64,000 nucleotides of DNA, from positions 96,001 to 160,000 of the forward strand of contig CAWDYC010000005.1 in the NCBI GenBank assembly GCA_963806535.1. Reading direction: 5' to 3'. The notes beneath the pieces were generated by a model. That model saw only the letters and a list, made by a program, of their open reading frames with translations. It was not told the origin of the DNA and searched no databases. The translations under genes and the position numbers were made by a program. This DNA comes from Candidatus Bathyarchaeota archaeon (GTDB taxonomy: Archaea > Thermoproteota > Bathyarchaeia > Bathyarchaeales > Bathycorpusculaceae). Positions 28,844 to 35,994 of the stretch are shown one piece after another; the stretch's first letter is position 1; the number at the start of each line of letters is the position of its first letter.

Positions 28844-29323
28844 TTGACAAACACCGAAGAGCTCGAAGGCACTACCCTAAACGTATATTCGTGCATGGTT
28901 AAGGAGGGTAAAGCGTTAGGTCCACGCGAAACAATGCGGCTTGCAAACCTTAGCAGCCCCAGCGTTGCTTATTGGCACCTGCAAAAACTGGAATCACTAG
29001 GCTTAATCGCTAAGAACGAGTACGGCGAATATACAGTCAAGGAAAAAATAAACATCAGCGGTCATTTATGGGTGGGGAAAACCCTTGTCCCGCGGCTGAT
29101 CTTCTATGCTTTCTTTTTCATCGGGATATTAATTGTGGAGGCAATAGTAATTGCCATTCCATTCTTTCAAAATGGCCAAACTCCAGGGTTGTACATTTTC
29201 TACTTGATGGGCCCAACTGCCATTGCTATGGTGCTGTTCCTTAGCGAAGGCATATGGTTGCGCAAAAAAACACAGAATGAAAGCGCCAAGAAAAAGGCAG
29301 CAGTGGAAAAACCACTGTCCTAA
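28844..29323 (+). CDS. wHTH regulator with two C-terminal TM helices
   Basis: Motif GPRETMRLANLSSPSVAYWHLQKLESLGLI followed by two hydrophobic segments. Confidence 0.82.
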   Translation: MTNTEELEGTTLNVYSCMVKEGKALGPRETMRLANLSSPSVAYWHLQKLESLGLIAKNEYGEYTVKEKINISGHLWVGKTLVPRLIFYAFFFIGILIVEAIVIAIPFFQNGQTPGLYIFYLMGPTAIAMVLFLSEGIWLRKKTQNESAKKKAAVEKPLS

Positions 29324-29404: not shown

Positions 29405-30325
29405 ATGAATAACATTAGAGCTAAACTGTTTGCGGCTTCTCCAGAATTGCCCCCAACAAATGAACAACCAATTTCATCATCGCCCGTCAAGCGCAGGTGG
29501 TTTGGAAAAAAGTTCTTTGGTTTATTAGCCGTCGTTGCGGTTGCAACAATTGTGGTAGCACTCTTTATTATTCCTCTGGGCTCAGCGGTAATACCGCTTA
29601 ACGTTGATTATACAGTTGGCGAGAAAATGGTTTACGATACAACCATTAATAGCAGTTTTGATAATTCGGCTATGCCATCAGGATCTACCGCTAACCTGCC
29701 TAGTAATACAACCATAAGTTACCAGCAAACTATAGACGTCACTGGTTTTGACGGAGAATACTACACCTTGAATCACACAATGACAATGGCTCTAAACAAT
29801 AAACCATTTAACTTCTCAGTGGTTGAGAAAATGAATAAAACTGGATACTCCGCGTACTTGCTTAACCTAGGAAGCACCCAGCAGGAAGTACCTAACAACG
29901 GATTAACAAGTAGCTCTTATCTTGCCCAGTTGTTAAACCAGCCAGAGGTTAAAGTGGGCGACACTGTAAATGTGCCGTTCCCAACCGGCAACTCAAGCAT
30001 TGGGGTTACAGGCGAATTAAAAATGACTTTCAAAGGCACCGAAGACCTCACAGTTCCAGCAGGCACATACAAAGTATTCAGAATAGACATAACAAGCAAC
30101 AACCTAAAAATGAACTATAGGACGCCATTGAGCGGCCTAAGTAACTTTACGCCAGCAAACATTACCATAGGCATGAACGTGAGCTATCAAATTTATATTG
30201 AGTATGGGACAATGAGGCAAATTAAGGCAAACATGCAAGAAAGCGTTTCAACTCAATCAGCAACAATGAACTACGGAATGAAAATGAACATGGATATGAC
30301 GCTTATCGAACATATTAAACCGTAA
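29405..30325 (+). CDS. Membrane-anchored extracellular beta-rich protein
   Basis: N-terminal TM; motif EDLTVPAGTYKVFRI. Confidence 0.75.
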   Translation: MNNIRAKLFAASPELPPTNEQPISSSPVKRRWFGKKFFGLLAVVAVATIVVALFIIPLGSAVIPLNVDYTVGEKMVYDTTINSSFDNSAMPSGSTANLPSNTTISYQQTIDVTGFDGEYYTLNHTMTMALNNKPFNFSVVEKMNKTGYSAYLLNLGSTQQEVPNNGLTSSSYLAQLLNQPEVKVGDTVNVPFPTGNSSIGVTGELKMTFKGTEDLTVPAGTYKVFRIDITSNNLKMNYRTPLSGLSNFTPANITIGMNVSYQIYIEYGTMRQIKANMQESVSTQSATMNYGMKMNMDMTLIEHIKP

Positions 30326-30719
30326 TTAAGAGTCTTAAATGTTGACGTTGACTGAGAGTTAGGGCAGTTACATTGTTGCCGCGAAATGTCCGATTAGGGA
30401 TGCCCACTGGGGTCACTTTGAGCCATCGCATTCATTGTAAAAACATTTCTTGTTGGGTTGCTAACTTTCTTGTTTCAATTAATATAAGGCATTTTTTACT
30501 CTGTAAAAGTATATTTTGGCGAATTAGGAACCGCCAAGGAAGCAATGTTTATCAGTTTATTTTGGATGAATTCGGAACTAAATCGAGTAACTTATATTTT
30601 TCCGCAGATATTTCGATGCATTATATGAACATCTAAGAGTTGACATCTCTTAAAGCCGAGGTAACCCTTAATACGTTATTCCAAGTGTTTGATCTTTTCA
30701 TTGTCATTATTTTTATTTA

Positions 30720-30891
30720 ATCAATTTTTTTTCAATCCATCATTCGACATAGCCACAGTTAGGACAGTAAAGCGGAGTTATTTTATCACTAAAAGATCGC
30801 CTTGTTTTCTGATAAACATCGCCCCTTGACTGCCTGTCTTACCTATTCTCCTTTGCTTTCCGCATTTTGGACATTTCTTGGATTCTTGCAT
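30720..30891 (-). pseudogene. Degenerate small zinc-ribbon protein gene
   Basis: MQESKKCPKCGK...IRKQGDL continues after a frameshift as KITPLYCPNCGYVE*WIEKK. Confidence 0.55.
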
Positions 30892-31124
30892 AATTAAGCG
30901 TCATAAATTAGAATGATATACAAGTTGAAAATGGTCGTATGCTGGTTTGTTGGTTTACCACAAGAAACACAAAAAGCTGAAAACAGCTGAATTATAGATT
31001 AGAAAAATATTAGACACAAAAATTGAGCGCTCCAGCCTTGCTTGGTTTTCGCTGCTACCTTTTTAATCCGCTTTCCTTTCCATTTATTTGTTATTTCTTT
31101 TTTCATGATTCAATGCTCAAGTCT

Positions 31125-31739
31125 CTATGTTGAATTGAAAGGGCTTAGTTTGTTTCTTTTACGCCACTCCATATCTAACCCAAAGCCAAATAGCAACATC
31201 AATAATGCGGCAATGTCCAAATAAAATGGAGCGGTTGCAGGGACCTGGGGAGTAGAGTCAACAAATAACCTCAATAAATATGAACAAACCAATATTGCTC
31301 CACCAATCACACCAATAATTATGCCGCCTAATCTTAAATTGGGGTTTATGTTTTCACTAAGCAAGTTTTTGTGAGATGCCCTTTTCTTAAAATAATCATA
31401 AGAATAATATACAACCACAAAAAGAAAAACACTATAGTCAACTAACCTTCCTCCCCAAAGAAGTGCAAAACCACTAATTAAATTGTTCATTGTTAAAGAA
31501 TACAGAAACCATATTGTGAAGATTCCAATTCCAAAAGCAAGCATTAGAATTTTTGTTCTAAGGTTTATTTGACCAATTAACGAAGAGATGAAGGCTGAAG
31601 TTCCATGAAGCCATCGCCTCACTTTAAAACTAAGACTTCTGTCGACCGGGACGATTTGGGCTTTGAAAGGCGCATTTAAGACGGGTTCTTTTGGAAGCCA
31701 ACCCCTGATTCGATTTTCTAAACTCTTCTTCACATTCAT
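31125..31739 (-). CDS. Membrane protein with N-terminal RIRGWLPKEP motif (array member 4)
   Basis: Begins MNVKKSLENRIRGWLPKEP; about 4 TM helices; ATGA overlap with the upstream gene. Confidence 0.8.
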   Translation of the reverse strand: MNVKKSLENRIRGWLPKEPVLNAPFKAQIVPVDRSLSFKVRRWLHGTSAFISSLIGQINLRTKILMLAFGIGIFTIWFLYSLTMNNLISGFALLWGGRLVDYSVFLFVVVYYSYDYFKKRASHKNLLSENINPNLRLGGIIIGVIGGAILVCSYLLRLFVDSTPQVPATAPFYLDIAALLMLLFGFGLDMEWRKRNKLSPFNST

Positions 31740-32389
31740 GCTCTCAACGGCGACCCTGTTACTCTTGATAATTCTTGCTTAGCTGTTGTTTCCGAACTGT
31801 TAGCATTGCTGTTTGATGCCTTTGGACTCAGGTAGAATCCAGATCCGAACCAACTTTGTACTATACGCATATTTTCCTTTTTTTCTAAGACGGAAAATAA
31901 GATAACTCTCGTTATTTGGAATGAAACTCCATAAGCATAAAAAGAAATCAAAGATCCTTGCAAAGCTGATGGCTTGCTTACAAAGAAACCAAAAATAAAG
32001 AATATAACTGTTGGAACAATAAACAAAATCATGTCTTCTCCATTTGTAGAGAATTTGTAATCTTTTAAAAGCCGATTAAGTTGGTTTTTAGTAAACATCG
32101 TGCATGAGATTGCACCAACTGCTAAGCCAGCAATTATCCAAGCCACTAATTGGAAAGCTGAAATAGGGTACGTTTCAAGGTTTCGGGAAATAGAAAAGGT
32201 AAGAAACCCGTAAAGGGTTATCCAGAAAATTGCAAGTGCTCCTGCAACTTTCGTGGCGCTTACTTTGTATTGGGGCGGAGTTATCTGCGGTGGCTTTTTG
32301 TTTTCATAGTCCATATTTGATCTTCTGCTAATTATGTATGGCTCTTTTGGCAACCAACCGTGAAAAAGTTTTTCTAACCGCTTTTTCAA
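31736..32389 (-). CDS. Membrane protein with N-terminal GWLPKEP motif (array member 3)
   Basis: Begins MKKRLEKLFHGWLPKEP; about 4 TM helices. Confidence 0.8.
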   Translation of the reverse strand: MKKRLEKLFHGWLPKEPYIISRRSNMDYENKKPPQITPPQYKVSATKVAGALAIFWITLYGFLTFSISRNLETYPISAFQLVAWIIAGLAVGAISCTMFTKNQLNRLLKDYKFSTNGEDMILFIVPTVIFFIFGFFVSKPSALQGSLISFYAYGVSFQITRVILFSVLEKKENMRIVQSWFGSGFYLSPKASNSNANSSETTAKQELSRVTGSPLRA

Positions 32390-32392
32390 TTT

Positions 32393-33454
32393 TCAACCAC
32401 TCCCAAAATTCAGTTGGTCAACCCAGAGATTCCCAAAAACTTTATCATTGAATCCTATTTTTGCAGTGACATTTACTGAAAAATGCGCATCTTGGGGAAC
32501 CCATATGTCAGTTGAAAATGTCTCGCTTTGTTTGGGGTTAAGTGTTGATTCTATCCAGCCTATTTTTGTTTGGTCAGAATTAAACAGGACAGTTTCAAAG
32601 TTTCCAACGTACAAGGTTGCGATGCCAAGTCCGATGCCTGCCGGGGTTCCGGGACTTGCTTGCGGCTCATGGGACATCCCCCAGAGTATCCAATCAAGGG
32701 GCATAGTTCCGTTTTGGGTTTCTACAGAAACATTTACGATGGCCGAGTTAAAATTTCTTTGTGGACACTGCAAATCTATCTCTAAATAGTAGTAGTCTTT
32801 CTTGCTGTCAAGGTCAGCATATTGGTATACGTTGACGCTGACGTTAAAACTGCCGTTGTTACTTATTTGGTTCTGGCTTTTTACTATTGTTTTTGAAGGA
32901 TTAATTATTTGTGGATCCGTGGCATAAACAGGCGCAAACGTTGCGGCGCATAAGATTACTAATAATGCCACGGGCGCCACTTGAATCAACTTTGAGGACG
33001 CGGTACCTTTGCCCATGCGTAGCGTAACCAAATAAACTAAGACAACAGCTTCCAAAGGCAGAGCGAACCTCAGTGGAACAATGTAGAATGCAATAAGCGA
33101 TATTACTAAAAATATGATGGCGATGTTTACCCAAACTTTTTTCATTGTAAGCAAGCCCGCACCCACAACAAACAAAGCTGCGCTGTCCATCGCTGCTACT
33201 GCAGCCATAATGAACTGCACGTTAAAAGAGAGGTAGCCAAGTTGTGTTACCTGCTGAATAATTGCTAATATTGCGCCAAAACCGAATATCCAAAACAAAG
33301 CAGTAACGAGCTTCAAGCCTAGTGGCGCTCGGCTTAAGAAAATTCTTCGGGCTTTCTTATCCTGTGAATTTGACGCATTTAAACTTCTGGGAAGGCTTGG
33401 TTCTTTAGGTAACCAACCGCGAATACGGCCTTGAAGGTATCTCAGTGGTTTCGC
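32393..33454 (-). CDS. Membrane protein with RIRGWLPKEP motif and an extracellular domain (array member 2); expected start codon reads GCG
   Basis: ORF 32393-33316 extends in frame to (GCG)KPLRYLQGRIRGWLPKEP at 33454; about 5 TM helices, then a soluble beta domain. Confidence 0.75.
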   Translation of the reverse strand, partial: AKPLRYLQGRIRGWLPKEPSLPRSLNASNSQDKKARRIFLSRAPLGLKLVTALFWIFGFGAILAIIQQVTQLGYLSFNVQFIMAAVAAMDSAALFVVGAGLLTMKKVWVNIAIIFLVISLIAFYIVPLRFALPLEAVVLVYLVTLRMGKGTASSKLIQVAPVALLVILCAATFAPVYATDPQIINPSKTIVKSQNQISNNGSFNVSVNVYQYADLDSKKDYYYLEIDLQCPQRNFNSAIVNVSVETQNGTMPLDWILWGMSHEPQASPGTPAGIGLGIATLYVGNFETVLFNSDQTKIGWIESTLNPKQSETFSTDIWVPQDAHFSVNVTAKIGFNDKVFGNLWVDQLNFGSG

Positions 33455-33567
33455 ATGCTCAGCTCCGGAATAAGTTTACTGAAAATTACGCGAGCTATTT
33501 TGGCTGGGTGAATGCTTGCTTTGTTTTCTTCCGTTATACCTCTTTCTTTGGCAATGTCGATTACGAA
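33455..33567 (-). pseudogene. Orphan 3' fragment of a paralog of the HTH gene at 34441-34926
   Basis: FVIDIAKERGITEENKASIHPAKIARVIFSKLIPEL versus FLIDIARERGVEIEGCEKIHPAKLAHIVFSKLIPEL: 23/36 identical by manual count. Confidence 0.85.
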
Positions 33568-33616
33568 GTTGTTGAGGTGCGAATATCTGCTTTCGACTTG
33601 AAGGGGGAATTCCACT

Positions 33617-34444
33617 TTAGTAACTGGCATTTTCTTCGACCTGATACTTGTTTGCATTTTTTCTTAGATTAACTAATGAAATAGCCATGGCTACAATCAA
33701 ACTTGCTATTCCTACGGAAAGGAGAATATTGCCTTGGTTTCTATAGGGGTAAGAGACGATGAACCCGCTATGGGTTAGGTCAATTGGTGTTGTTATGGTA
33801 AACAAAGGTGAGGGCAGTTTTCCAGTCGCATTGCAGTAGAAACTGAAAACAACGTCTCTTACTATGGGTTGCTGGTCGCTCGGGCCGACTTCAAATGGTG
33901 GTTTCATAGAGATTGCGCTAATAATCAAGTCCTGCTTTTTAGTTTGGATGGTCGAAAAAGTACCAGTATAGTTGGTCTGTTGAGGACTGTAAGAGCTTGC
34001 TGAGACGTTGTAGGATGCGTACCTTAAAGTGACAAAGTAAACTCCTGCTGTGAGATTACTGGGCTCATTTAGATATACGTAGATTGGTGCCACCCAGTTA
34101 GAAGTGCCGACTCCTTCTAATGGCGGTGAAACAAAGACATTGATACTGCAGTTATAGTTCGTTCCGTTAAACTGGATAGGTGTTCGTAAAGACCCCCATT
34201 CTACGGGCAATTGGTAAGAACTCTGCACCTTAGAGACCGAGTTTAGGTATAATCCGCTAAGTATTAGACTAACGGCTAACACTACTACAATGAAATGGGC
34301 CAAATTAATTGCCGATTTTTCCGTTATCTGTCTGAGTTTCAAGGGCTTGGTTTCGAGCTTTATCTTCAATGGTTTGTTAGGATTTAGAGGCTCTTTCGGA
34401 AGCCAACCTCTAATTCTGCTTTGCAAACATCTTTTGGCTTTCAT
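33617..34444 (-). CDS. Two-TM protein with RIRGWLPKEP motif and a large extracellular loop (array member 1)
   Basis: Begins MKAKRCLQSRIRGWLPKEP; ATGA overlap with the HTH gene. Confidence 0.8.
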   Translation of the reverse strand: MKAKRCLQSRIRGWLPKEPLNPNKPLKIKLETKPLKLRQITEKSAINLAHFIVVVLAVSLILSGLYLNSVSKVQSSYQLPVEWGSLRTPIQFNGTNYNCSINVFVSPPLEGVGTSNWVAPIYVYLNEPSNLTAGVYFVTLRYASYNVSASSYSPQQTNYTGTFSTIQTKKQDLIISAISMKPPFEVGPSDQQPIVRDVVFSFYCNATGKLPSPLFTITTPIDLTHSGFIVSYPYRNQGNILLSVGIASLIVAMAISLVNLRKNANKYQVEENASY

Positions 34445-34926
34445 TGGCTCGTCAGCTCCGGGATTAATTTGCTAAAAACTATGTGTGCCAATTTCGCTGG
34501 ATGGATTTTTTCGCAACCTTCAATTTCCACGCCTCTTTCTCTTGCAATATCGATTAGGAATTGTTTTGTTTGGTTTAGGAAGGCTGCGTCGGTGACTTCT
34601 TCGGGGTTGTCATGCCAGTACCAGACTTTTAGGCCATGGCTTGTCGTGTAAGTTATGATGGCTTTTCGTTTGAGGACAGGGTGATAACCGAGCAGTATAG
34701 CTTGTTTTGGATACAGTTTTGTTAATTGAAGATCGTTTACTTGCGCCACATCCAGAAGTGTAGTAGCTATTTTCGCTTCGGCCGTCAAGCGTGTTTGATT
34801 TACGTATTGGCGTGTAGTGTTGAGTTTGTCAGCTATTTTGGTTACTGAAAAACCCTCGCTAATTAGGGACCAGATGACTTTTTGACTTTGGCTTAGCGGT
34901 GAGGAGAACGAACAGTTCGGACTCAT
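34441..34926 (-). CDS. HTH (sigma-region-4/LuxR-like) DNA-binding protein heading the RIRGWLPKEP array
   Basis: LSQSQKVIWSLISEGFSVTKIADKLNTTRQYVNQT followed by an unrecognised C-terminal domain (GLKVWYWH). Confidence 0.78.
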   Translation of the reverse strand: MSPNCSFSSPLSQSQKVIWSLISEGFSVTKIADKLNTTRQYVNQTRLTAEAKIATTLLDVAQVNDLQLTKLYPKQAILLGYHPVLKRKAIITYTTSHGLKVWYWHDNPEEVTDAAFLNQTKQFLIDIARERGVEIEGCEKIHPAKLAHIVFSKLIPELTSQ

Positions 34927-34933
34927 CAATATC

Positions 34934-34969
34934 CACGTAAATACGTGAGTATTTACAAGTATTTATAAT
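34934..34969 (-). promoter_or_regulatory. TATA box plus palindromic operator of the HTH gene
   Basis: GTAAATAC-GTGA-GTATTTAC (34937-34956) and CACGTA-AA-TACGTG (34934-34947) lie between the minus-strand TTATAAA (34963-34969) and the start codon. Confidence 0.6.
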
Positions 34970-35151
34970 TTGCTAAAATTGCTACACTTGAAAGTTTTCG
35001 CGGTGAAATTCTCACGCTGTACGCTGATTTTTAATTAAAATTGTTTTAGCGGTTTCCAGCCCATAAAGGGTTAGTAAAGAAATCTTGACTAAGACAAGTC
35101 AAGAAAGTTTTACGAGAAGTCTTTTATTGTAAATTAGTTCCAGAAGTTATC

Positions 35152-35994
35152 ATGGGAAGCATGAGCAAAGGTTTTGCATTATTATTCATTCTAACCATGA
35201 GTGTTTCATGTCTAATTCTGTTGATTATTAGACCTTCATATGCTCAGTCAATACCAACTCCATCTGTTCCAGAATTTAGTTTGAAGTATTTTACAAAATC
35301 ACTTGATTCAGAACCTGAAACTTCAATAAACCCCTACACTGGACAGAATGAAACAATCTCATCAGGCTATCATTATGACACAAGAAATGTAGAAATAACT
35401 ATAAAGAATCAGCCATTCAACCCATTTACAGATTCAAATGGAAACCATGTTGATTTGAACTATAATGTTACTTTCAAAGGACATTATACAGATACTTGGA
35501 GCCACTATCCTGACAGCACATACGAGGACCTTTTCAGCATGTCAGCTACTGGCGACACAATTATTAATGTATCTTTAGAAGGTTGGCCAGAACTTCCTAA
35601 GGGTGCTCTGTTAGATTTTAGATTGCAAGCAGTAATAGGACATTATAACTACGACACACCCCCATCAGGAACAGATTATATAACTGGTTTTACTGCCTAT
35701 CAAACAAGCAATTGGAGTAATCCACTGACGGTAACTGTCGGAGAAACTTCAAGCACAACTTCAACAAGCCAAACGGCTACACTAACGTCTACATCCACGC
35801 CGACCGTTCCAGAATTTCCAATATGGATCCCGATGTTTTTTACTGCAACGGTAATCTTCGGTTGTTTATTTGTGTACTTCAGGAAACACAATCCTGTAAC
35901 TAATCGCAATTTAGAGTGGGAGAATAACAAGAGAGTTATGGGAAATAATAAAAAGAAAGCAAACGATACTAAAAGATGCTGGAAGCCTGAGTAA
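35152..35994 (+). CDS. Secreted surface protein with a PEF-CTERM-like tail
   Basis: Signal peptide, PSVPEF, Thr-rich linker, then VPEFP, a TM helix and RK. Confidence 0.8.
   Translation: MGSMSKGFALLFILTMSVSCLILLIIRPSYAQSIPTPSVPEFSLKYFTKSLDSEPETSINPYTGQNETISSGYHYDTRNVEITIKNQPFNPFTDSNGNHVDLNYNVTFKGHYTDTWSHYPDSTYEDLFSMSATGDTIINVSLEGWPELPKGALLDFRLQAVIGHYNYDTPPSGTDYITGFTAYQTSNWSNPLTVTVGETSSTTSTSQTATLTSTSTPTVPEFPIWIPMFFTATVIFGCLFVYFRKHNPVTNRNLEWENNKRVMGNNKKKANDTKRCWKPE

Follow-up and report, generated by a model that had tools for sequence, protein, structure and literature searches.

A conserved HTH regulator and its array of membrane proteins with a shared N-terminal tag in Bathyarchaeia: a candidate anti-sigma-like module

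Organization of the locus

The array occupies positions 34,926-31,125 of the window, by which we mean the whole 64,000-nt stretch of a Candidatus Bathyarchaeota archaeon contig analysed here, entirely by computation. It lies on the minus strand throughout and consists of an HTH gene followed by four co-oriented membrane-protein genes, M1-M4, which have only an N-terminal ..RIRGWLPKEP peptide (hereafter the tag) in common, and ahead of M2, on the same strand, sits what is left of the 3′ end of another HTH gene. The HTH ORF (34441-34926, minus strand) encodes 161 aa from an ATG, with an alternative TTG start at 34929. M1 (33617..34444, minus strand; 275 aa) begins MKAKRCLQSRIRGWLPKEP and has two TM segments around a ~180-aa loop, all TM numbers for M1-M4 being crude hydropathy counts; the junction sequence bears out the ATGA coupling of its start to the HTH stop that the initial annotation had claimed. 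M2 (32393..33454, minus strand; 353 codons from a GCG) has four TM segments, a C-terminal domain and the tag, within an open frame that spans 32393-33475 and reads ..AKPLRYLQGRIRGWLPKEP. ATG, GTG and TTG are all absent from this frame before the motif, the earliest canonical start being an internal TTG at 33316. The GCG codon (33454-33452) aligns with the ATG of an ATGA junction both in the orthologue from genome G013 (locus L042) and in a metagenome contig (run X4) that is roughly 93% alike, so the start site is indeed altered, as had been noted, but from the ATGA junction of its relatives rather than from the GTGA that had been proposed.

M3 (31736..32389, minus strand; 217 aa, three TM) starts with a TTG 3 nt past the M2 stop (MKKRLEKLFHGWLPKEP) and carries the tag variant LFHGWLPKEP. 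M4 (31125..31739, minus strand; 204 aa, four TM) overlaps the M3 stop by 4 nt, bears the near-consensus tag MNVKKSLENRIRGWLPKEP, and is the best match in the genome to the tag DNA profile described below. Past the first 30-50 residues we found no similarity among M1-M4, which fall into four different clusters of cassettes. The orthologues of M1 (in sister species G012) and M2 (in G013) are 73% and 82% identical, with dN/dS of 0.25 and 0.315, and M3 belongs to the second largest cluster, of 20 cassettes; it has 17 database homologues, 12 of which were examined, and the tag is present in 8/8 of those whose N-terminus is included. The description of this locus as a regulator followed by four motif-sharing, otherwise diverged genes thus held, by ORFs, clusters and genome-wide motif search. 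A possible decayed fifth cassette start, also suggested previously, is hinted at by a single 28-nt nhmmer profile match (30663..30690, minus strand; 6.8 bits; E 0.007 when the search is confined to the 799-nt gap) in frames MTMKRS and HLE*RIKGYLG, which a stop and a frameshift interrupt, but it is absent from the genome-wide profile search at E <= 10. Neighbouring genes also encode envelope proteins.

Upstream of the HTH gene, the sequence reads as an operon promoter with a TATA-like box TTATAAATA (34960..34968, minus strand) and an operator-like palindrome GTAAATAC-TCAC-GTATTTAC (34937..34956) that has perfect 8-nt arms and ends 10 nt before the ATG. The palindrome had been proposed as the gene's own putative operator, and this is borne out by its conservation: the family form GTAAATA-N6-TATTTAC, with a spacer of invariably 6 nt, abuts the TATA box in 63/80 related loci and ends 7-24 nt ahead of the start codon, and a TTAAATA-like box lies at most 6 nt upstream of it in 55/80. 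The same palindrome occurs only five times elsewhere in the 739 kb of these loci, and within the genome the N6 form is confined to the promoters of the two subfamily-A HTH genes, namely the window gene and a paralogue on contig C10. From the operator position, the regulator is probably an operator-binding repressor.

A Tfx-like HTH joined to a private C-terminal domain

The structure model of the regulator (pLDDT 87.8) places a Tfx/LuxR/sigma-4-like HTH and a long helix at residues about 9-64 and an alpha+beta domain of four strands and two helices at residues 65-161. The HTH part is best matched by EnfR (8hno_A; Z 9.4, rmsd 0.8 over 52 residues, 27% identity), and its structural neighbours include the sigma-4 chains of many sigma/anti-sigma complexes at Z 7-9. 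The C-terminal domain has no match of Z >= 5 among 48,161 PDB representatives, and no precomputed Pfam domain was found among the 120 homologues listed of 1386. The whole regulator scores 13.8 bits against TIGR00721 (cut-off 60.25; a true Tfx elsewhere in the same genome reaches 86.6 bits) and does not match the TFX_C profile, and hhalign aligns 37 HTH columns with Tfx and nothing beyond.

The tag is linked to the regulator family

At the level of sequence, the HTH gene with tagged cassettes is a family trait of Bathyarchaeia. Searching all six translated frames of the 2.95-Mb genome with a strict motif regex gave four matches, all in the window array, and a nucleotide profile built from 130 related cassette starts found six places at E <= 1e-4, the four in the array and two after the paralogous HTH on C10, with the runner-up at E 0.75; all 4/4 and 6/6 matches therefore directly follow the two subfamily-A HTH genes. 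Of 80 loci in other genomes, 79 have at least 300 nt downstream, and in 61/79 a tag ORF begins at most 40 nt from where the HTH gene ends, counts which overstate independence as the relatives are kin and the two locus sets overlap. Arrays at these loci comprise 0 (18 loci), 1 (29), 2 (15), 3 (9), 4 (4), 5 (2), 8 (1) or 9 (1) members, with only 13 tag ORFs elsewhere in the same loci. Some of the 18/79 loci that lack an adjacent tag ORF by regex have a variant tag, FWGWVPEEP, and in others ABC-transporter genes or a secreted protein come first, with a tag gene further down or absent. The linkage of motif and HTH gene expected by the initial annotation is thus tight and specific.

The tag, of roughly 19 residues (consensus MNVKKSLENRIRGWLPKEP), is conserved as protein, since among 130 distinct cassette starts the codons for its conserved G, P and P are saturated at the third position (1.6-1.95 bits of entropy) and invariant at positions 1 and 2. 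In 112/130 cassettes the distance from the start codon to that G is exactly 12 codons, and about 20 polar residues separate the tag from TM1. The pre-TM1 segment (median length 39 aa, median net charge +5) is positively charged in 128/129 cassettes, compared with 23/129 for the 15 residues after TM1, and so the tag-bearing N-terminal segment is probably cytoplasmic. The type of tag switches with the HTH subfamily: genes of the distant subfamily B, about 30% identical, have a different palindrome (GTAAGC..GCTTAC) and are followed by single-pass proteins, also in arrays, with another tag, ..FRDWCPQPP.., which in this genome occurs only at subfamily-B loci.

Behind the tag, the cassettes turn over. 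The family's 134 cassettes form 35 unrelated clusters, and 129/130 surveyed tag-bearing proteins have at least one predicted TM. Many are small, with 2-4 TM, the largest has 534 aa, there are up to 10 TM, and some carry NosD/beta-helix ectodomains. One cluster can appear at array positions 1 to 8, and the first cassette falls in the same cluster in only 15 of 45 HTH pairs that are at least 85% identical, so the regulator-adjacent cassette does vary among relatives, as had been anticipated. NosD/Beta_helix gave the only Pfam matches over cut-off in the 134 cassettes, with no toxin family among them, and PADLOC gave no match for any of the six products. DUF1673, to which the initial annotation had likened the cassettes, was ruled out as their identity: no match was obtained in the genome, in the four window cassettes (E <= 0.1) or in 130 relatives' cassettes (E <= 0.001), and the positive control, Methanosarcina acetivorans, gave one.

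Predicted docking of the tag on the regulator

Modelling the peptide with the HTH protein, a check that the initial annotation had called for, placed the conserved peptide on the most conserved face of the C-terminal domain with an ipSAE of 0.62 (0.61, 0.62 and 0.62 in three runs, with at least 81% of contacts agreeing), against 0.00 for the best of three controls. This mark was reached by 116/157 solved complexes and 2/215 mismatched pairs, rates that are only rough here because our own alignments were used. Peptide residues 10-18 face HTH residues 65, 91, 101-110, 112, 117, 121, 124, 143-146, 148-149 and 152, and 19/23 of these show complete or at least 90% conservation, compared with 73/162 overall (hypergeometric P about 9e-5). 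The peptide itself has a low pLDDT of 48-50. Memorisation of a solved structure is an unlikely source of the pass, since none resembling the C-terminal domain was found. Co-folding may simply favour conserved surfaces. Binding of the tag by the HTH protein is hence a prediction of the co-fold, which supports it without proving it. Covariation added nothing: the residue following W agreed within arrays at 0.519, compared with 0.448 when shuffled (293/5000 shuffles reached the observed value), and none of the HTH columns of highest mutual information lies at the interface. We also found no fused HTH-membrane (Rosetta stone) form, itself weak evidence.

The orphan HTH fragment is best read as a scar

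The orphan HTH 3′ remnant (33442..33657, minus strand) is contained in an ORF of 71 codons overlapping the M1 end. Its homology is clear over about 33445-33563, corresponding to HTH residues 123-160, with 23/38 identical to the resident HTH (23/36 in the earlier count), and the existence of such a copy is therefore confirmed. Window positions 32340-33563 are 85.6% identical in DNA to the HTH 3′ end and M2 of G013, and 33585-34920 are 79% identical to M1 and HTH of G012. Repeats D3 and D5 also attest to the remnant, and identity between the window's repeats is no more than 66-86%, their exact runs being short. Across the 109 loci L031-L139, which include the 80 genome-contig loci and some duplicates, a true orphan otherwise occurs only in sister species G012; its left edge is common to G012 and the window, and the cassettes after it differ. 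Both of these cassettes are damaged, M2 having no start codon and that of G012 being truncated. Further HTH 3′ remnants comprise a subfamily-B scar in L057 and, among library proteins, P0255 and P0273, which are chimeric or orphan.

The best reading of these sequences is that the fragment is a recombination scar and not a working cassette store. On this reading, a G012-like HTH-M1 module became fused to a G013-like HTH-M2 module that retained just the final roughly 110 nt of its HTH gene, and M2 lost its ATG thereafter. The proposal that the orphan piece serves as a working swap device was not upheld, given its presence in one other genome only, the damaged cassettes that follow it and the low repeat identity.

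Discussion

We lean, with modest confidence, towards a Bathyarchaeia-specific, anti-sigma-like module in which an autoregulated repressor is held or modulated by tagged membrane partners. The regulator would bind GTAAATA-N6-TATTTAC and repress its own operon, which would also yield one to nine co-transcribed, often translationally coupled membrane proteins of unrelated folds and a common tag. The N-terminal segment of these proteins, cytoplasmic and about 40 residues long, would display the tag for docking in an invariant groove of the regulator's C-terminal domain, formed by the strand KVWYWH and the two last helices, and the docked membrane proteins would tether or modulate the regulator much as anti-sigma factors, or PtsG with Mlc, do in bacteria. 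The feedback logic of this scheme is incomplete, because sequestration of a repressor by excess co-expressed partners is positive feedback. The anti-sigma-like system put forward in the initial annotation is favoured as regards linkage, the subfamily-specific tag, the operator, the co-fold and the varying first cassette, but not as regards swapping through the orphan 3′ end. If true, one regulator could integrate several envelope proteins, a type of membrane signalling that has so far not been reported from archaea.

The main competing idea, which we regard as unlikely, is that other machinery reads the tag as a signal for sorting, membrane insertion or processing and that the HTH protein only autoregulates an envelope operon. 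A fixed distance from the start is what signal sequences have, nearly all tag proteins (129/130) have a predicted TM, neighbouring genes encode envelope proteins too, and the peptide is modelled with low pLDDT. Such a signal would nevertheless not be expected to be confined to genes after this HTH family (6/6 in the genome), to change with the HTH subfamily, or to stand about 20 polar residues ahead of TM1, unlike class I-III signal peptides, and it would leave the co-fold (0.62 against 0.00) and an invariant C-terminal face otherwise without known ligand. It is less probable still that the cassette starts work during translation, whether as an element for coupling or as a nascent regulatory, arrest-type peptide, instead of as a docking site; fixed start distances and tight stop/start junctions across arrays would suit this, yet the saturated silent sites make an RNA element improbable, and neither the invariant face nor the co-fold is explained, so that we give this reading the least weight of all.

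Programmed switching of the regulator-adjacent sensor, with homology arms supplied by the DNA encoding the tag and by orphan HTH 3′ ends, would accommodate a first cassette that often differs, clusters found at positions 1 to 8, remnants that recur (window, G012, L057, P0255, P0273) and the same left edge before different cassettes. We consider it improbable, since a true orphan is found in just one other genome among L031-L139, both cassettes behind orphans are damaged, repeat identity is low with short exact runs, tag DNA is saturated at silent sites, and no alternative read-level joints were seen in the short, low-depth contigs. Slightly more doubtful is a toxin-antitoxin- or defence-like role, with the HTH protein as an autorepressing antitoxin whose C-terminal domain acts on the N-terminal peptide of small membrane-damaging proteins to neutralise them. 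Type II TA operons are laid out likewise, with this gene order, a 4-nt stop/start overlap and a palindrome at the promoter, and many cassettes here are small (2-4 TM) and their content hypervariable; against this stand the PADLOC and Pfam results, cassettes of up to 534 aa and 10 TM, some with NosD/beta-helix ectodomains, up to nine cassettes for a single regulator, and ordinary dN/dS of 0.25-0.32.

Comparison with known systems

Regarding the preferred reading, in which tagged membrane proteins hold or modulate a repressor, several known systems offer partial parallels. The DUF1673 arrays of Methanosarcina were named in the initial annotation as tandem membrane-protein genes with a short conserved N-terminal region, but the cassettes here do not match DUF1673. 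Rhs/CDI loci contain orphan toxin modules in which a conserved upstream piece is retained before the displaced cassette, just as the last roughly 40 HTH codons are kept here; they differ in that such remnants are rare here and stand before damaged cassettes, the repeats have low identity, and toxin or immunity genes are absent.

Similar in architecture is the Tfx family (Methanothermobacter Tfx, PDB 1NR3; Thermococcus onnurineus EnfR/TON_1525, PDB 8HNO), likewise archaeal proteins of about 140-160 aa with a sigma-4/LuxR-like HTH, a long helix and a C-terminal alpha+beta domain in the same order, whereas our regulator falls far below the TIGR00721 cut-off, does not match TFX_C and has a C-terminal domain without a PDB match. 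We know of no report of a linked, tagged membrane partner for Tfx. According to the EnfR paper, EnfR binds a pseudo-palindrome in a promoter, Tfx-type regulators are without an effector-binding domain, and an unknown antirepressor is proposed (PMC10570040).

The docking step has its analogue in a repressor of bacteria: the soluble repressor would be controlled by binding the cytoplasmic part of a membrane protein, much as E. coli Mlc is sequestered at the membrane by PtsG, although the two systems share no homology and the partners here are encoded within the regulator's own operon and bear a short dedicated tag. In ECF sigma/membrane anti-sigma pairs (including the multiple SigI-RsgI of Clostridium thermocellum), the sigma gene lies just upstream of, and often overlaps, the gene for a membrane protein whose cytoplasmic N-terminus binds the DNA-binding protein and whose outer part is variable. 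The present array is alike in having the gene of a sigma-4-like protein upstream of membrane-protein genes with variable outer parts. Archaea are, to our knowledge, without sigma factors, and the regulator here, which has no sigma-2 region, is probably an operator-binding repressor; its predicted binding element is a tag of roughly 19 residues instead of an 80-residue anti-sigma domain, and a single regulator is accompanied by up to nine unrelated partners.

A regulator gene followed by tagged membrane-protein genes

The 161-aa regulator gene (HTH; 34441–34926, minus strand; ATG start, with a TTG one codon further upstream) is followed on the same strand by four membrane-protein genes in tight succession. 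M1 (33617–34444) overlaps the HTH stop through an ATGA, the open frame of M2 runs from 33475 down to 32393, M3 (31736–32389) begins at a TTG 3 nt past the M2 stop, and M4 (31125–31739) overlaps the M3 stop by 4 nt. All four N-termini comprise a basic stretch and then RIRGWLPKEP (LFHGWLPKEP in M3), which together we refer to as the tag. Beyond it the proteins have no common sequence: tblastn cross-matches end within the first 30–50 residues, and the variable parts fall into four different clusters. A strict motif regex over the six-frame translation of the 2.95-Mb genome returned 4 matches, all inside this array, and a DNA profile of 130 related cassette starts found six places at E ≤ 1e-4, namely M1–M4 and two genes behind a second HTH on contig C10, with the next match at E 0.75; the array motif is thus far beyond chance. 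The layout described in the initial annotation, an HTH gene, four co-oriented tagged genes and an HTH 3′ remnant, was borne out by ORFs, tblastn, regex and profile. A putative fifth cassette start had no match in the genome-wide profile search and a local score of just 6.8 bits, and we rejected it. The database copy of M3 (P0121) has 192 aa from an internal Met, without the TTG start and the tag, indicating that automatic gene calls can hide the tag.

None of M1–M4 matches a Pfam or NCBIfam family over cut-off, and PADLOC assigned the six products tested to 0 families; together with the lack of Pfam matches over cut-off, this identifies no known toxin, antitoxin or defence family. A likeness to the DUF1673 arrays had been suggested; the cassettes do not belong to that family, with no PF07895 match in M1–M4 (E ≤ 0.1), in 130 cassettes of relatives (E ≤ 0.001) or in the whole genome.

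The window also encodes a membrane-anchored winged-HTH-like protein (28844–29323, plus strand), with a weak HTH_20 match and then TM segments, followed by a DUF3108-like protein with an N-terminal TM (29405–30325, plus strand). Next to the C10 HTH, a 70%-identical copy of the latter lies in divergent orientation, and 5 of 80 HTH loci have related genes. The DUF3108-like gene is divergent to the C10 HTH and convergent to the window array, orientations that rule out a simple inversion. At 30740–30900 (minus strand), a small gene resembling a zinc ribbon, with the CxxC motifs CPKCG and YCPNCG, extends over two frames and is either frameshifted or two short ORFs. An inverted repeat at 35074–35113 (core CTTGACT-N6-AGTCAAG) lies upstream of a plus-strand gene at 35152, and 50 nt at this repeat are 86% identical to a stretch of another HTH locus (L034), in opposite orientation.

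Distribution and linkage of the module

The HTH is present in 20 of 41 related genomes, with 17 of the 24 other same-genus genomes and 2 of the 16 from other families of the order carrying it. A scan of one genome per species (185,579 species) gave 159 HTH relatives, and all but a few of the 80 that were kept are from Bathyarchaeota or Bathyarchaeia. Within the same genome as the window, the C10 locus encodes an HTH 68% identical to that of the window (together, subfamily A), overlapped by two tagged membrane genes. Each of the distant paralogues on contigs C4 and C9 (subfamily B), 31–34% identical over the aligned stretch, is coupled to a membrane protein that has one TM and begins with another motif.

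The expected linkage of tagged genes to this HTH family is upheld: a tag ORF starts within 40 nt of the HTH end in 61 of the 79 loci with at least 300 nt downstream, counts that are not independent events because the genomes are kin and two locus sets are partly duplicated, and all six profile matches in the window's own genome lie behind subfamily-A HTHs. Elsewhere in these loci there are just 13 tag ORFs, in about three times more searched sequence. Array sizes by regex are 0 (18 loci), 1 (29), 2 (15), 3 (9), 4 (4), 5 (2), 8 (1) and 9 (1). Some of the 18 seemingly empty loci carry a variant tag, FWGWVPEEP, missed by the regex; in some, genes for ABC transporters or for a secreted protein come directly behind the HTH, and the tagged gene is further down or absent. 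An ABC ATPase gene was found at 18 of the 80 loci, for the most part those with the most divergent HTHs, and an exporter may be the ancestral cargo of the module. On the more divergent HTH branches (L097, L109, L125, L129, L134, L135, L137–L139 and L048, as well as C9:88669–90328 of the window's own genome), genes for an ABC ATPase and an ABC-2-type permease are part of the operon, placed ahead of the tagged gene or behind it. At two loci (L049, on G021:C6, and L045/L119, on G023:C5), the HTH gene is broken by several frameshifts or stops and the tagged cassettes behind it are still intact. Among longer proteins we found no fused HTH-membrane forms at E ≤ 0.001, in a search that amounts to weak evidence.

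A probably cytoplasmic tag on unrelated membrane proteins

Over 130 distinct cassette starts the tag consensus is MNVKKSLENRIRGWLPKEP. The G, W and first P were fixed by the search design; at the remaining, unforced positions we observed R before G in 116, I in 93, E in 96 and the second P in 97. In 112 of 130, the start codon (93 ATG, 16 TTG, 3 GTG) precedes the G by exactly 12 codons. For the conserved residues G, P and P, entropy at the third codon position is 1.6–1.95 bits across the 130 starts, so the tag is conserved as protein and not as DNA or RNA. Ahead of TM1, the segment is 39 residues long and carries a net charge of +5 (medians) and is positive in 128 of 129 cassettes, whereas the 15 residues past TM1 are positive in 23 of 129, an asymmetry that, by the positive-inside rule, predicts a cytoplasmic tag.

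What follows the tag is highly diverse. The 134 cassettes fall into 35 clusters (16 singletons), range from 64 to 534 aa and have 0–10 predicted TM segments, and the 3 of 130 that have a Pfam match over cut-off match NosD/beta-helix. For the M3 family, which has 17 database relatives, 12 were fetched, and all 8 with an N-terminus bear the tag.

A putative operator at the HTH promoter

A palindrome, GTAAATAC-TCAC-GTATTTAC (34937–34956), lies 3′ of a TTATAAATA box and ends 10 nt before the HTH ATG. Of 80 loci, 63 have it ahead of the HTH gene in the form GTAAA[TC]A-N6-T[AG]TTTAC. The spacer is 6 nt in every case, the palindrome ends 7–24 nt (mostly 8–10) before the start codon, and in 55 loci a TATA-like box is within 6 nt of it; elsewhere in the 739 kb of these loci it occurs 5 times. 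An archaeal promoter site that lies past the TATA box and ahead of the transcription start points to repression by blocked polymerase recruitment, and from the position of the operator relative to the TATA box we infer that the HTH is an autorepressor. The N6 palindrome occurs in the window's own genome only at both subfamily-A promoters, so no regulon was detected beyond these two operons. A genome-wide regex also returned two N4-spacer palindromes outside the window (GTAAACA-N4-TGTTTAC, at C4:360301 and C5:170705), which we rejected as HTH targets: they lie at the starts of ribbon-helix-helix genes, with a RelE-like gene following at C5:170705, and are ordinary promoters of unrelated toxin-antitoxin pairs of the RHH-RelE-like kind.

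Subfamily B differs at each of these elements. Its tag is ..FRDWCPQPP.., the C-terminal strand of its HTH reads WYKHEGDCEKC vs WYWHDNPEEV in subfamily A, and its promoters carry GTAAGC..GCTTAC palindromes instead of the A form. At the level of sequence, a subfamily-specific tag fits a paired specificity of tag and HTH. The subfamily-B loci of this genome (C4:184146–185241 and C9:90436–91622; L050, L051) and their relatives (L053–L059 and L044:6829–9505) encode HTHs about 30% identical to subfamily A, with three cysteines in the C-terminal domain (..EGDCEKCxx..C..). Their partners are single-pass proteins that start ..RKRFRDFRDWCPQPPDRLP.., form arrays of up to 3 and have ectodomains of up to 757 aa.

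A Tfx-like HTH joined to a private C-terminal domain

Sequence searches with the HTH gave weak matches only (HTH_23, Tfx, RcsB). The only Pfam matches were HTH_23 (14.5 bits) and HTH_7 (14.1 bits), both under cut-off; LuxR/GerE (PF00196) had no match over its gathering score, and no Pfam or NCBIfam family was over cut-off. The protein has 1386 homologues at the level of 90% clusters, with a precomputed Pfam domain in none of the 120 matches listed, and among 50% clusters from metagenomes its representatives number 385 at E ≤ 0.001, falling to 137 at E ≤ 1e-10 and to 34 at E ≤ 1e-30. The predicted model (pLDDT 87.8) consists of helices 14–24 and 29–35, a long helix 40–64, a four-stranded sheet 68–104 and helices 115–131 and 144–155, and thus contains a sigma-70 region 4/LuxR-like HTH plus a long helix, a Tfx-family trait. 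The best structural match of the N-terminal part is the Tfx-family repressor EnfR (8hno_A; Z 9.4, rmsd 0.8 over 52 residues), after which come numerous sigma-4 chains that belong to sigma/anti-sigma complexes. Superposed on RcsB, the HTH has an rmsd of 0.6 over 42 residues, and profile matches comprise RcsB, NarL, EnfR and Tfx chains.

Membership of the Tfx family itself was rejected. TIGR00721 scores 13.8–14.6 bits against a cut-off of 60.25, over positions 6–50 only, hhalign with the genome's own Tfx covers 37 HTH columns only (probability 82%), and TFX_C (PF14601, the ‘note-head’ of EnfR) has no match in the HTH at E ≤ 10, nor in the Pfam search at E ≤ 0.1. The genuine and sole canonical Tfx gene of this genome scores 86.6 bits and lies at C9:171745–172146 (L143:1492–1893); the gene after it encodes a 220-aa protein with a cysteine-rich C-terminal end.

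The 161-aa protein ends in a non-sigma C-terminal domain, which modelled alone has a pLDDT of 87.7. Compared with 48,161 PDB representatives this domain has no match at Z ≥ 5 (best 4.1), and EnfR is absent among the matches listed. Foldseek found none at E ≤ 0.001, the best being PipX (E 0.27, TM 0.31–0.36), and with the whole model it recovers the HTH part only. EVH1/PH-like matches at Z ~3 do not count as evidence. As for a sigma-2 region, Sigma70_r2 has no match, and the region-4 end is the only part of TIGR02937 that aligns, with 12.6 bits against a cut-off of 42.9.

A predicted contact between tag and regulator

Co-folding the HTH with the first 36 residues of the adjacent cassette, each with an alignment of 58 sequences, gave a score of 0.62 (runs 0.61, 0.62 and 0.62), against 0.00 for the best of 3 controls. 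Among solved complexes 116 of 157 reach the mark for this score, as do 2 of 215 mismatched pairs, counts that hold only roughly here because our own alignments were used. At least 81% of contacts agree between runs, and the partner has a pLDDT of at least 48. Specifically, the confident interface involves peptide residues 10–18 (RIRGWLPKE) and HTH residues 65, 91, 101–110 (KVWYWHDNPE), 112, 117, 121, 124, 143–146, 148–149 and 152. Of these HTH residues, 19 of 23 are invariant or at least 90% conserved, vs 73 of 162 overall (P ~9e-5). PDB searches returned no complex or fold like it, so that the score is unlikely to stem from a structure the predictor had already seen. The initial annotation had proposed that the tag tethers the regulator; the model supports binding of the tag to the HTH C-terminal domain, and a model alone does not show it. 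Covariation between the tag residue after the W and HTH columns in subfamily A gave no usable signal: within-array agreement was 0.519 vs 0.448 when shuffled, 293 of 5000 shuffles reach the observed agreement, and the columns with the top mutual information are the most variable ones.

The reading that we consider most likely, at somewhat better than even odds, is a Tfx-like repressor that regulates its own gene and recognises, through its private C-terminal domain, a cytoplasmic tag of 19 residues on the interchangeable membrane proteins encoded with it. In the main rival reading, the tag would have nothing to do with the HTH and would be a signal for sorting or insertion. Such a signal could likewise occupy a conserved N-terminal position ahead of TM1; tag ORFs are concentrated directly behind HTH genes, and the tag is predicted to contact conserved HTH residues, and we regard this alternative as unlikely.

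The orphan fragment and cassette turnover

Between M1 and M2 lies a remnant of the last ~40 HTH codons, identical at 23 of 38 positions to resident HTH residues 123–160. The stretch 32340–33563 has 85.6% DNA identity to the last ~110 nt of the HTH gene plus the M2 orthologue of a related genome (G013), in which M2 stands directly behind a full HTH, and the stretch 33585–34920 is 79% identical to the HTH and M1 of the sister species (G012). The window thus joins an HTH–M1 module to the tail of an HTH–M2 module, and from these alignments we read the orphan fragment as a probable scar of module fusion. In the sister species the remnant has the same left edge, is shortened and in frame with M1, and is followed by a truncated cassette of another type.

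The junction sequence is ..GAGTACATGAAACC in G013 and ..GAGAACATGAAACC in an X4 metagenome contig (~93% alike), both with an ATGA stop/start overlap. In the window it is ..GAGCATGCGAAACC, which makes the M2 codon GCG (33454–33452) and puts the ATG out of frame. A contig of a second metagenome set (X1, depth 3) has no difference listed at 33452–33454, which supports GCG weakly, since one of its three differences is not itemised and X1 is possibly the source sample; set X3 gave no aligned contig. The M2 body is still under constraint, with a dN/dS of 0.315 vs G013; the value for M1 vs G012 is 0.25. M2 would either have lost its start recently, or use a non-canonical start (a CTG overlapping the TGA of the fragment as CTGA), or begin at an internal TTG (33316), which would drop the tag.

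Orphan modules are also a feature of Rhs/CDI-like loci, and the initial annotation had proposed that cassettes are swapped by recombination. Turnover itself is real, and the cassette next to the regulator does differ among relatives: just 15 of 45 HTH pairs at least 85% identical have a first-cassette cluster in common, and one cassette cluster is found at many array positions. HTH 3′ remnants recur as well, as in a subfamily-B locus (L057) where a truncated cassette ends with an HTH-B tail, and in two proteins (P0255 and P0273) in which a non-HTH N-terminus is joined to HTH residues from ~111–115 onward. A programmed cassette-switching locus is nevertheless very improbable. In a profile search of all fetched loci (L031–L139), a true orphan was found only in the sister species, other partial matches being frameshifted HTH genes; the window repeats are 66–86% identical, and those that would act as homology arms 75–86%, not near-identical; and both orphan-linked cassettes are damaged, M2 lacking a start and the G012 cassette being truncated. 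These points also speak against the Rhs/CDI-like swapping of orphan modules. Among proteins with HTH tails, P0255 combines a winged HTH and a TM with the end of a subfamily-A HTH (~47 residues), the orphan tail P0273 has 73 aa, and in P0168 a PAS-like piece is fused to the 100 C-terminal residues of an HTH from subfamily B.

Discussion

If the HTH does read the tag, any membrane protein bearing the 19 residues would become an input to a dedicated Tfx-like regulator, through a previously unseen C-terminal peptide-binding domain. With as many as nine unrelated tagged proteins in an array, a single regulator could then combine information on many states of the envelope. We tentatively suggest that this constitutes a ‘tag-and-reader’ form of signalling private to Bathyarchaeia, a possibility that we hold with less confidence than the repressor reading itself. 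A full-text literature search, with matches partly judged from abstracts, found no published description of this HTH family, tag or arrays.

To our knowledge, envelope-to-transcription signalling in archaea is poorly characterized, archaea have no sigma or anti-sigma factors, and Tfx-type regulators have no known input. If true, our proposal would mean that a transcription factor is sequestered at the membrane in an anti-sigma-like way, for the first time in Archaea, and would supply an actual case of the ‘missing antirepressor’ input that has been postulated for regulators of the Tfx type. The only detailed study of these regulators proposes an undiscovered antirepressor (PMC10570040).

The pair is small and defined, consisting of a 161-aa protein, a 19-mer and a 20-bp operator. 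Should it bind, it would provide a new peptide-binding domain and a portable tag that marks membrane proteins as regulatory partners. The family so defined would number 385 representative clusters in metagenomes at E ≤ 0.001, with 137 at E ≤ 1e-10, and dozens of Bathyarchaeia membrane-protein families, almost none of which have a Pfam match (3 of 130), would become approachable for the first time.

Compared with ECF sigma/anti-sigma systems, the module differs on both sides: the sigma-2 region that belongs to those systems is missing from the HTH, and where their membrane partner carries an anti-sigma domain, M1–M4 have only the ~19 conserved residues. The proposed HTH-tag module would therefore not be a member of the anti-sigma or Mlc–PtsG families, but would be similar to these systems in its working.
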